Below the pieces are notes generated by a model, which ran no database searches, was not told the DNA's origin, and saw nothing but the letters and a program-made list of their open reading frames with translations. A DNA stretch of 64,000 nt from Paramecium tetraurelia (lineage: Eukaryota): NCBI GenBank assembly GCA_000165425.1, contig CT867998.1, positions 186,001 to 250,000 on the forward strand, given 5' to 3'. The translations under genes and the position numbers were made by a program. This document shows positions 15,868 through 20,636 of this stretch, piece after piece. Within the stretch, counting starts at the first letter, position 1; every line of letters starts with the position of its first letter.

Positions 15868-16249
15868 AATAAAGAATAATTTTAATAAAAATCAACTTTC
15901 ATCTTGCTGATTTTTCGAGAGATCTTTCAAATAAAACATAATGACAAATTTAATATAAATTTATCTGTATAAGAATTCTGAAAGACTTTGGATAATTTGG
16001 TGACAGTGAGATTAATCAAAATATTGAAAAAATCACTGGTTGCAATTTAGAAAGTGATTTTTTCATCAAAAATTTTGGTAATATGAGAAACAGAGATTAA
16101 TGGTATAATAGTTGGAATAAATGAGAATGTAATATATGCGATTTGATTTTAATATTCATAATTTCCATGAAATAGCCAATTAAATTAATTTATAATTGTA
16201 AATTTGATATTTAGCAGAACACGATTTCAAAGGATAAATAAATAATAAA

Positions 16250-16568
16250 ATGGCAAAAGGAGGAAAGAGCAGAAGTTAAAGCAAATCAGGAAAAAGTAAA
16301 TTGATTGATAACTAAATTATTAGAGAGTGGATCAGCTACAAAAAAGATTAAGAAGTAAGTTCCAGCTGCTTCACCTGCAAAGGTTGATGTTGCAACCACT
16401 GCAGCACCAAAGACTCCAGTAGCATCTGCAAAGAAGGATTCTGCTAAAAAATCTACTCAAAAGAGTACATAAAAAAGCACTTAGAAATCAGTAAAGAAAA
16501 GTGCAGCCAAGAACTCAACTAAGAAGGGAAGTGCATAAAAAGGAAAAAGTGGAAAGAAAGCATAATGA
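16250..16568 (+). CDS. Small K/S/A-rich basic protein, histone H1-like (96 aa)
   Basis: One 28-nt intron (16296-16323); MAKGGKSRSQSKSGKKSGSATKKIKKQVPAASPAKVDVATTAAPKTPVASAKKDSAKKSTQKSTQKSTQKSVKKSAAKNSTKKGSAQKGKSGKKAQ*. Confidence 0.8.
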
Positions 16569-16603
16569 TTAATATAATATATATATTATAATATAATTAT
16601 AAA

Positions 16604-18027
16604 ATGTCTCTTAAAGATTTCAAGATTATATCAAAATTAGGTTTAGTTTACTAATATGATAGGTGAGGGAGCATACTCAATAGTGTACAAGGTAAAAAGA
16701 ATTGAAGACAATTCAGAGTATGCCTTAAAAAAAGTTAATCTTACAAATTTGAGTGATAAGGAGAAATAAAATGCCTTAAATGAAGTCAGAATATTGGCAT
16801 CCATCAAAAATCCATATATCATTAGCTACAAGGAAGCTTTCATTGATGTTAATAGTAATTCATTATGGTAATAAAATTTGATAATATTAAAACAGTATTG
16901 TAATGGAACTAGCAGATAACGGAGATCTCTTATAATCAATTTAGAAATGTGCCAAATCTAATACAACGATGAGTGAAAATGACATTTTGAAAATTACCTT
17001 TCAAATTGCAAGTGGTTTAAAAGCATTGCATGATTTGAAAATATTCCATAGAGACTTAAAAAGTGCAAATGTTTTTTTGTAATCCAACGGAGATGTGAAA
17101 TTGGGAGACATGAATGTTTCAAAAGTAGCCAAAAAGGGATTACTCTATACACAAACAGGAACACCATATTATGCAAGTCCTGAAGTATGGAAGGATCTGC
17201 CCTATGATCAGAAATCAGATATCTGGTCGTTGGGATGTGTCACATACGAAATGGCTGCACTCAAACCACCCTTTAGAGCTGAAGATATGGAAGGACTCTA
17301 CAAGAAAGTTATAAGAGGTATCATTCTAATATCATACCATTTAGGCCTATATCCAAAACTTCCATCATAATATTCGTAAGATTTGCAGAATGTCATAAGA
17401 ATGATGTTGTAGGTCCAAACCAATTTAAGACCGACATCATACGCTCTAACTGAACTCCCCTATTTCAATAGATTTAAAACACACATCATAGATGATCAAA
17501 GCAAATTGCTCAATACCATCATATTCCCAAAGAACCAAATTTCTATAGCAAATATGTTGCCTAAAGCCAATTACAACAATCATAAATTCAAAACTGAGGC
17601 CAATCAACATAGTGACACACAGGAAACTATTCAAAGACATAGACAAACAACTCTTGGAGCTGGTTCGCATCAATCTTCACCAAATCCTACTAGAATTTCG
17701 CAATATCTGGCAGAGTAAGAAATGCTATTAAGTATTTATATATTAATTAAAGAATAATAGTATTCAGTAAATTATGCTACAAAAAATAAGAAAACACATA
17801 ACTATTCTGATAGGAATGTGATTGCCAAGATCCTACTTGAGTATTAGAAGGAAGTGCCCATTTATAAACAAATAAAATAACGAAATCGAAGACTCTCGTA
17901 GGAGGAAACTCCGTATCTATATCAGAGGAGAATTAGTCAGCTTCCTGCTTTAGAGGAACATTCTCCAAATCAGAAACGACATCCTCGGAATTAGAGTATG
18001 CCAACTTCCAATTTACCTATAATCTGA
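16604..18027 (+). CDS. NIMA-related kinase (Nek)
   Basis: LGEGAYSIVYKV, ALNEVRILAS, HRDLKSANVFL, KLGDMNVSKV, QTGTPYYASPEVW; micro-introns. Confidence 0.95.
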
Positions 18028-20157: not shown

Positions 20158-20636
20158 ATGACAACCCCAGAACCAGAGGAATATCCAAAACCATAAATCG
20201 CAAAGCAAAAAAAACAAAAAAAACAAAAAGATCCATTAGCACCAAAGATGCCAAAATCAGCCTTCATCTTTTATTTTTAGGATAAGAGAGAGAAATTTCA
20301 ATAACAATATCCAAGTCTTTTTTCATGCTATGCTAGATCTACAATTTCAAGAAATCACCAAATTAATTGCAAGTGAATGGAAAGATTTACCAAAAGAAAT
20401 TTAGTAGGTACTCAAAACCATGTTATAATGCCTAGTCATATCACGATTAAGCCTTTAAAGACAGAAGTCGTTATTCCTAAGAAAGCGAACTCTATTGCAC
20501 TTAAACAGGCAAAAAATTCAAAGGCAAGAATCAGACAAAAACTAATAAATCAAATGCAAAACAAGAATAACTCTAATAAAAAGTAGATTAAGATGATGAA
20601 AACGATTCATTTGGTGCAGATATAGGTTAAGAATGA
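20158..20636 (+). CDS. Single HMG-box protein (NHP6/HMGB-like)
   Basis: KKQKDPLAPKMPKSAFIFYFQDKREKF..NLQFQEITKLIASEWKDL..YHDQAFKDRSRY, acidic tail; 2 introns. Confidence 0.92.

Follow-up and report, generated by a model that had tools for sequence, protein, structure and literature searches.

A small spliced lysine-rich gene as a candidate tail-only linker histone of Paramecium tetraurelia

The stretch of Paramecium tetraurelia DNA considered here (hereafter the window; 64,000 nucleotides of contig CT867998.1) reads in genetic code 6, with GT..AG introns of 20–35 nt. On its forward strand, segments 16250–16295 and 16324–16568 (ATG at 16250, TGA at 16568) join into a coding sequence which translates, under code 6, into a protein of 96 a.a. 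The features of this candidate gene are:

16169..16219, + strand: proximal-promoter block of 51 nt, identical in both duplicates (exact match)
16174..16182, + strand: CCAAT box AGCCAATTA, one base off the core-histone consensus CCAATCA
16250..16295, + strand: exon 1, encoding a Gly/Lys/Ser-rich N-terminus (codons 1–15 plus one base)
16296..16323, + strand: intron of 28 nt, GT..AG, phase 1, 18% GC
16324..16568, + strand: exon 2 up to the TGA stop, from translation, gene finder and RNA depth
16359..16433, + strand: Ala/Pro/Val-rich, less basic middle segment, residues 28–52, with 3 Lys in 25 residues
16371..16382 and 16413..16424, + strand: SPAK and TPVA, respectively, inside the middle segment, both S/T-P retained in the duplicate
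16449..16484, + strand: tandem repeat of three KSTQ units in the basic C-terminal half, identical in the duplicate

With the intron left in, the frame stops after 45 codons. A second intron and other acceptor sites were considered and rejected, as the remaining GT..AG options are richer in GC or shift the frame. Exactly this model was recovered ab initio by a gene finder whose training set of 464 kb, made up of the window and 40 further pieces of 10 kb, included the candidate, and several of the neighbouring introns that the finder called are confirmed by reads; its predicted starts are imperfect, as it mis-called that of the kinase gene downstream. This kinase, presumably NEK-like from its sequence, begins at 16605 with MSLKDFK, which its paralogs share, and then an intron; the start is only 36 nt after the candidate stop, so that the kinase promoter must overlap the candidate 3′ end. 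The spacer in front of it (window 16569–16664) is an AT repeat. At another locus (L044:6748–7759), genes for an S26-like and an L21-like ribosomal protein, so labelled by eye, adjoin at a distance of 108 nt. Within the window, 3.6 kb downstream of the candidate, lies an intron-split gene on the + strand (20158–20636) that is HMG-box-like by eye, with KDPLAPKMPKSAF followed by EITKLIASEWK. It was missed by a PF00505 search of the genome, and a Pfam search with one of its frames gave no confirmation; the apparent dN/dS of its duplicate pair, 0.34, is the highest of the pairs, which an erroneous gene model may explain.

Translation and gene finder alike confirm the product that the original prediction described, a spliced 96-a.a. 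protein with 27 Lys, two acidic residues and no hydrophobic core. The composition (K27 S17 A15 T8 G7 Q7 V5 P4 D2 M1 R1 I1 N1) is free of Glu, Leu, Cys and aromatic residues; Lys accounts for 28%, K+A+S+T+G+P for 81%, and D+E and large hydrophobic residues for 2% each, with a pI of 11.07, a mass of 9.76 kDa, a GRAVY of −1.24 and a net charge of +26. The basic residues fall into two blocks (10 in residues 1–27 and 15 of 44 in residues 53–96) around the 25-residue spacer. Such a composition predicts a disordered chain with no folded core. Of 194 complete predicted proteins, the candidate has the highest values of Lys, Ala, net charge and K+A+S+T+G+P and the lowest of hydrophobic and of acidic residues. 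A six-frame filter for H1-like tails (60 a.a., K at least 20%, A at least 8%, hydrophobic and acidic residues at most 8%) was passed in the 464 kb by the candidate gene only. Over a larger set of loci, 934 kb with some overlap, it was passed by the candidate, its duplicate and two H3 tails; as this covers about 1% of the genome, similar proteins may exist elsewhere. The protein is thus small, Lys/Ala/Ser/Thr/Pro-rich, strongly basic and, as judged from composition, unfolded, as is characteristic of tail-only H1 proteins. Descent from a core-histone tail was considered and rejected, the local scores against five such tails being equalled by 148–613 of 1,000 shuffles.

Two short motifs had been singled out in the protein. 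The KSTQ repeat is real and non-random, as none of 10,000 shuffled sequences contained a threefold 4-mer. The CDK-type sites fared less well: SPAK is a full consensus, whereas TPVA has no basic residue at +3 and is a partial one, and the number of S/T-P sites is at chance level (among 10,000 shuffles, 2,812 have at least two S/T-P and 2,791 have a full S/T-P-x-K/R).

Searches of the genome (72.1 Mb, 697 contigs) with protein and DNA found one other copy of the gene, on contig C62, between the same two kinase genes. We take it to be the partner from a whole-genome duplication; synteny extends to 13 of the 18 window genes within 20 kb. The duplicate encodes 94 a.a. with 95.7% identity and has a 29-nt intron at the matching place. 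Exon 1 is free of nucleotide differences, and the whole pair differs by 14 synonymous and 4 non-synonymous changes and an in-frame 3-nt indel, with all 27 Lys retained. This corresponds to a dS of 0.26, a dN of 0.019 and a dN/dS of 0.072, the dS being the lowest of 13 duplicate pairs (0.47–1.75 in the others). A retained paralog, which had been named as a check on the gene, is therefore present within the genome, and judging from these substitutions the protein is under purifying selection. From older duplications no copy was found: the syntenic slots on contigs C602 and C635 (loci L147 and L148) are devoid of a small basic gene and hold, between the kinases, a gene of 390–420 a.a. that is FHA- and RING-like by eye, so that the content of this slot differs between old duplicates. 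The copy number is two, as compared with 11 canonical-type H3 loci and 8 H2B loci.

Expression was followed in two oligo-dT runs (X22 and X24) at 90% likeness, with both duplicates counted together. The depth over the two bins of the candidate was 25 and 24 in X22 and 122 and 140 in X24, on the sense strand, while the other 28 bins had depths of 0–12 and 0–15, respectively; read ends cluster near 16252 and 16561. At position 16421, the letters of the duplicate are carried by 22 of 38 and 139 of 228 reads, or about 60%, so that both copies are expressed. Loose ends that span the junction of the duplicate's spliced form were found in 20 and 12 reads of X24. The window copy's own junction is not among the reads listed, and the evidence for its splicing comes from the open frame, the gene-finder model and the form of the duplicate. 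Roughly, the pair contributes 22–33 and 102–154 mRNAs per million, a difference of about fivefold between X22 and X24 (for a short transcript, in cells of unspecified state and with no histone control). The check at the RNA level thus finds the gene transcribed, but at a moderate level in these two runs. In the likeness of its codon usage to that of histone genes, the candidate is third of 194, behind two ribosomal-protein genes, and codon usage and low dS together suggest high expression. A further run, X4 ('Organism B'), has no cross-species value, as its long pieces are identical to the window.

These data show that the candidate is a spliced, polyadenylated and selected working gene. Its absence from protein collections, its low complexity and a kinase ATG so close behind its stop would also be expected of a frame open by chance, of a transcript from the kinase promoter or of a gene remnant in decay; however, a dN/dS of 0.07, an indel that keeps the frame and a conserved intron position are set against this, as are the ab initio prediction and an RNA depth several- to many-fold over that of the kinase with a start and end of its own, and it is scarcely credible that the locus is no protein gene.

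Low-complexity, fast-evolving chains can lose detectable similarity. Exon 2 (80 a.a.), which as a control finds its own protein at E = 5e-32 with default phmmer filters and equal database size, was compared with a word-indexed protein collection; none of 1,008 candidates of 44–140 a.a. reached E ≤ 10 and none of 3,040 candidates of 141–2000 a.a. was confirmed. A full HMMER search with it over 1.84 billion representatives gave 0 matches at E ≤ 0.001, the candidate had 0 matches in the PDB, and none of 596 pattern matches in metagenome contigs was confirmed. Likewise, phmmer detected no similarity to Hho1 or other H1 tails in collections that should hold Hho1. As had been foreseen for winged-helix HMMs, exon 2 matched 0 Pfam families at E ≤ 10; the candidate has no winged-helix globular domain of the canonical H1/H5 type (PF00538), for which the genome gave no match either in a weak search without a eukaryotic positive control. 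Nor does it have an HMG box or an HC2 repeat, as it lies outside the 22 PF00505 matches in the genome, and PF07382 had 0 matches there. The three intronless window proteins examined are all present in the public protein collection, together with orthologs from four other aurelia species, and we infer that the candidate is missing from the public protein sets searched, although it may carry a ParameciumDB identifier. The idea of an overlooked gene would therefore hold for sets that include its neighbours' proteins, and such an absence would explain why BLAST searches with Hho1 have failed. Peptides of the candidate were not found in the supplements of two proteomics papers on Paramecium, whose tables need not list peptides (PMC11789628; PMC9670198).

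The promoter offers evidence of another kind. The 51-nt block lies within the 100 nt upstream of the gene and is the longest exact upstream match among 12 duplicate pairs (7–31 nt in the others; the pair of the kinase behind the candidate was omitted, since the region in front of that kinase overlaps the candidate), and the intron has diverged. Within the block, the CCAAT starts 74 nt before the ATG, and at −75 in the duplicate. For comparison, 30 of 37 histone-fold matches were fetched and the 26 with a clear start kept (L015, L019, L026 and L032 were dropped, and no H4 is included). CCAATCA occurs at −55 to −95 in 23 of these 26 core-histone genes, reversed in H2A, and the three genes devoid of it are divergent H3 genes; the 23 sites belong to paralogs and represent 16 distinct sites. 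Over loci L003–L031, the H3, H2A and H2B boxes lie 61–90 nt before the ATG, and several H2B genes have the box once more near −103. A gene labelled H2A.Z-like by eye (L087) also has a CCAATCA box. Between the 16-mer of the candidate and that of four H2B genes there are 2 mismatches.

Such boxes are rare elsewhere. Among 192 background starts, 18 have any CCAAT, 1 has CCAATCA and 2 have CCAATYA; the counts for 135 further starts from other loci are 11, 0 and 0. For all 327 background starts they come to 29 with any CCAAT, 11 with RCCAAT, 1 with CCAATCA, 2 with CCAATYA and 0 with RCCAATYA. The least tailored contrast, any CCAAT on either strand, is 88% of histone genes against 9% of the background, about tenfold. 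On a matrix built from the histone sites alone, the candidate box scores 8.8 bits. With two of three pseudocount settings this exceeds all 192 background genes and with the third 191 of them; in the combined set it exceeds 326 of 327 (1 scores at least as high). It is nevertheless below all 23 leave-one-out histone scores (9.0–22.5), because it has a T where all 23 sites have C. The limits of distance and the tolerance of T for C were both set post hoc, and in a wider window (−20 to −145) 6–8 of 192 background genes reach the candidate score.

Genome-wide, the pattern RCCAATCA-N50-78-AAAATGGC has 18 matches, of which 10 are at gene starts (6 H3 and 4 H2B), 6 inside other genes and 2 non-genic. 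Its TTA variant has 9 matches, with the candidate as the sole predicted gene start, 7 inside genes and 1 non-genic. As a beginning of the AAAATGGC type is present in 3 of 193 background genes, these patterns tested some hundreds of genes. A pattern drawn from H2B and the candidate, and hence circular for the latter, gave 18 matches, of which 8 are at starts: 6 H2B genes, one gene that is H2A.Z-like by eye, and the candidate. In Tetrahymena, CCAAT is established as a motif of core promoters (PMC11754650), and a literature search found no paper on CCAAT in Paramecium histone genes. The CCAAT box points to possible co-regulation of the candidate with the core histones. Three small HMG-box genes (L179–L181; 120–124 a.a.) share a reverse RRCCAAT at −104 to −107, and may be regarded as other candidates for linker-type chromatin proteins.

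An unfolded basic chain could serve in other places. Microtubule-associated proteins, too, have basic blocks with SP/TP motifs, and ciliates have many lineage-specific cortical proteins; the candidate might accordingly be a MAP/tau-like binder of microtubules or cortex, with Pro-directed sites that control its binding to acidic tubulin tails, and the kinase genes on both of its sides could be counted in favour of this. This is rather improbable, as none of the 24 tubulin genes has CCAAT at −55 to −95 (a divergent one reaches 14.4 on the matrix although devoid of the CCAAT core), the candidate has no Glu-rich, coiled-coil or hydrophobic repeat, and its neighbourhood carries no functional signal, the older duplicate blocks having a different gene in the slot. 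In a divergent tubulin-like group (L164, L166 and related loci; starting MSSA/MTSS-x-HLHIGGA), two genes have upstream a CCAAT-like word that lacks the exact core. The promoter points to a DNA partner and to synthesis with the histones rather than to tubulin.

A basic nuclear or nucleolar protein other than a linker histone, either a binder of the nucleosome core of the HMGN/HMGA kind or an RNA-binding factor of ribosome biogenesis with the same poly-cationic chemistry, is less improbable but still unlikely, and sequence does not tell it apart from an H1-like protein. Composition cannot separate a DNA from an RNA partner, and the codon usage of the candidate groups with that of ribosomal-protein genes. 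One background ribosomal-protein gene has a reverse CCAAT at −67, the three small HMG-box genes have theirs near −105 (overall, 3 of 22 HMG-box loci have CCAAT, and 0 CCAATYA, at −55 to −95), and linker DNA in Paramecium is only a few bp long. In addition, the H1-like protein of Toxoplasma gondii is itself partly nucleolar and binds ribosomal proteins (PMC9769792). On the other hand, the candidate has a single Arg, no acidic tail and no aromatic residue, unlike the ribosomal proteins sampled, it matches nothing in Pfam or the PDB, and a forward RCCAATYA at that distance is otherwise found only at histone starts.

The reading preferred here is that the candidate, as its sequence and promoter make fairly likely, belongs to the tail-only H1-like chromatin proteins, is synthesised together with the core histones and is probably sub-stoichiometric. 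Within this reading, a macronuclear protein comes somewhat short of an even chance, and one limited to the micronucleus or to development appears quite unlikely. The original proposal of a linker histone gains from expression, selection and the histone-type CCAAT box, and little from the phosphosite argument. The candidate would be the best available for the missing linker histone, with the promoter as one independent line of support. Against an H1-like function are the mismatch in the box, the chance level of S/T-P sites, the lack of detectable similarity to Hho1, and linkers of a few bp, which offer a linker histone little DNA; in addition, 24 of 24 canonical H3, H2B and H2A genes are predicted to be intronless, whereas the candidate has an intron. 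The mRNA level and copy number count against a bulk H1 present once per nucleosome.

As to mechanism, the CCAAT box would place the gene in the growth/S-phase regulon of H3, H2A and H2B. The unfolded chain could then enter the nucleus and bind DNA electrostatically through residues 1–27 and 53–96, the two basic blocks joined by the Ala/Pro-rich spacer. These blocks would neutralise linker DNA or DNA on the nucleosome surface and compact chromatin in the manner of an H1 C-terminal tail. Phosphorylation in the spacer (SPAK, TPV), along with that of the many Ser/Thr beside Lys, might loosen the binding, like the charge patch of Hho1. A low dose is suggested by the two gene copies, the missing older-block copy and the moderate mRNA; two copies with moderate mRNA would make the protein sub-stoichiometric, which would fit the 151-bp repeat with no need for H1 absence. 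A micronuclear or developmental role would fit a low dose as well.

Papers on Paramecium bear out the premise that no H1 has been identified there and that linkers are very short. The absence is stated by Gnan 2022 (PMC8997360) and Drews 2022 (PMC8997361), as well as in PMC9670198 and PMC11789628, and one Paramecium paper ties the 151-bp nucleosome repeat to it. In the 2022 chromatin work, no macronuclear H1 was identified, which was held to support gene inactivation free of condensation, while an H1 homolog too divergent to be found was allowed for (PMC8997360; PMC8997361). Linkers are a few bp, and a higher ratio of H1 to core histones goes with longer repeats (PMC8997360), so that a short H1 of low abundance fits a repeat of 151 bp. 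Two ISWI1 papers use the absence of H1 in discussing DNA elimination (PMC9670198; PMC11789628). A literature search, thin on subscription journals and older biochemistry, found no paper that describes a Paramecium H1, and nothing on Paramecium was gained from PMC2114502 and PMC2612030.

It is quite possible, though less than an even wager, that Paramecium has in the candidate its real macronuclear linker histone, the shortest H1 so far from a ciliate, which is reduced to two basic blocks and, at low dose, compacts chromatin of 151-bp repeat; it may equally tentatively be supposed, on this macronuclear reading, that the gene was missed since the protein annotations of all aurelia species skipped it. 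A candidate with two genes makes the statements of H1 absence directly testable in a tractable model. If a macronuclear H1 is real, the shortest known nucleosome repeats do not require that H1 be lost, and how a linker histone functions where linker DNA is missing, on the nucleosome surface or between neighbours, would be open to study by silencing or over-expressing two tiny genes. The promoter box is also a way to find histone-regulon genes that are invisible to homology searches.

Among the closest known systems is Hho1 of Tetrahymena, whose gene, to go by the title of a 1986 report by Wu, is said to have an intron. Both Hho1 and the candidate are lysine-rich, without a globular domain, of low copy number and encoded by an intron-containing gene. 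As the original prediction held, Hho1 lacks a globular domain and has Pro-directed sites, which are located in its N-terminal half (PMC6957481; PMC7460583; PMC2115643). It is largely disordered (PMC6957481), is phosphorylated at T34, T46 and T53 (PMC7460583), and has TPVK at two major sites (PMC2115643); its phosphorylation mimics H1 removal (PMC6957481; PMC7460583; PMC6562869; PMC2115643). The Pro-directed sites of the candidate, S31 and T45 in mature numbering, are near T34 and T46 of Hho1, which is suggestive only. In contrast, the candidate has 96 a.a. while Hho1, which has a K154, is much longer (PMC7460583). It also has one full CDK consensus rather than three and TPVA instead of TPVK, and database searches detected no sequence similarity. 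Orthology to Hho1 is a separate question, and is to be regarded as possible but doubtful.

In size, the candidate is nearer to TgH1-like of Toxoplasma gondii (TGME49_315570), a nuclear, chromatin-bound protein of 91 a.a. and 9 kDa that is phosphorylated at S43, gathers in the nucleolus and binds ribosomal proteins, and aligns with trypanosomatid H1 at 42–57% (PMC9769792). The candidate shares with it and with the kinetoplastid H1-like proteins a mass of about 9 kDa, a hydrophilic, tail-only character and a phosphosite near the middle, which in the candidate is a predicted one. TgH1-like came to light late, in a lineage that had been held to be without H1 (PMC9769792), as the candidate would. 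The candidate differs in having no match to these proteins at E ≤ 0.001 and in being richer in Ser, Thr, Gln and Gly, and is known here from sequence and reads, whereas TgH1-like has localisation and knockout data. The micronuclear Mlh1 beta and gamma of Tetrahymena are also small, basic, H1-like chains without a globular domain, but are cut from a polyprotein with HMG boxes and are described as free of cdc2 sites (PMC6957481); the candidate is encoded by a free-standing gene of 96 a.a. and has one full CDK site. Spirotrich H1s have a globular domain (PMC4122937; PMC9958989), and H1.1 of Stylonychia matches PF00538 (PMC4122937). To such winged-helix H1s, including H1.1 and H1.2 of Stylonychia and Oxytricha, the resemblance is confined to the composition of the C-terminal tail. 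Tail-only H1 proteins are thus a kind already known from Tetrahymena, trypanosomes and Toxoplasma, and the candidate, with somewhat better prospects than otherwise, would join them.
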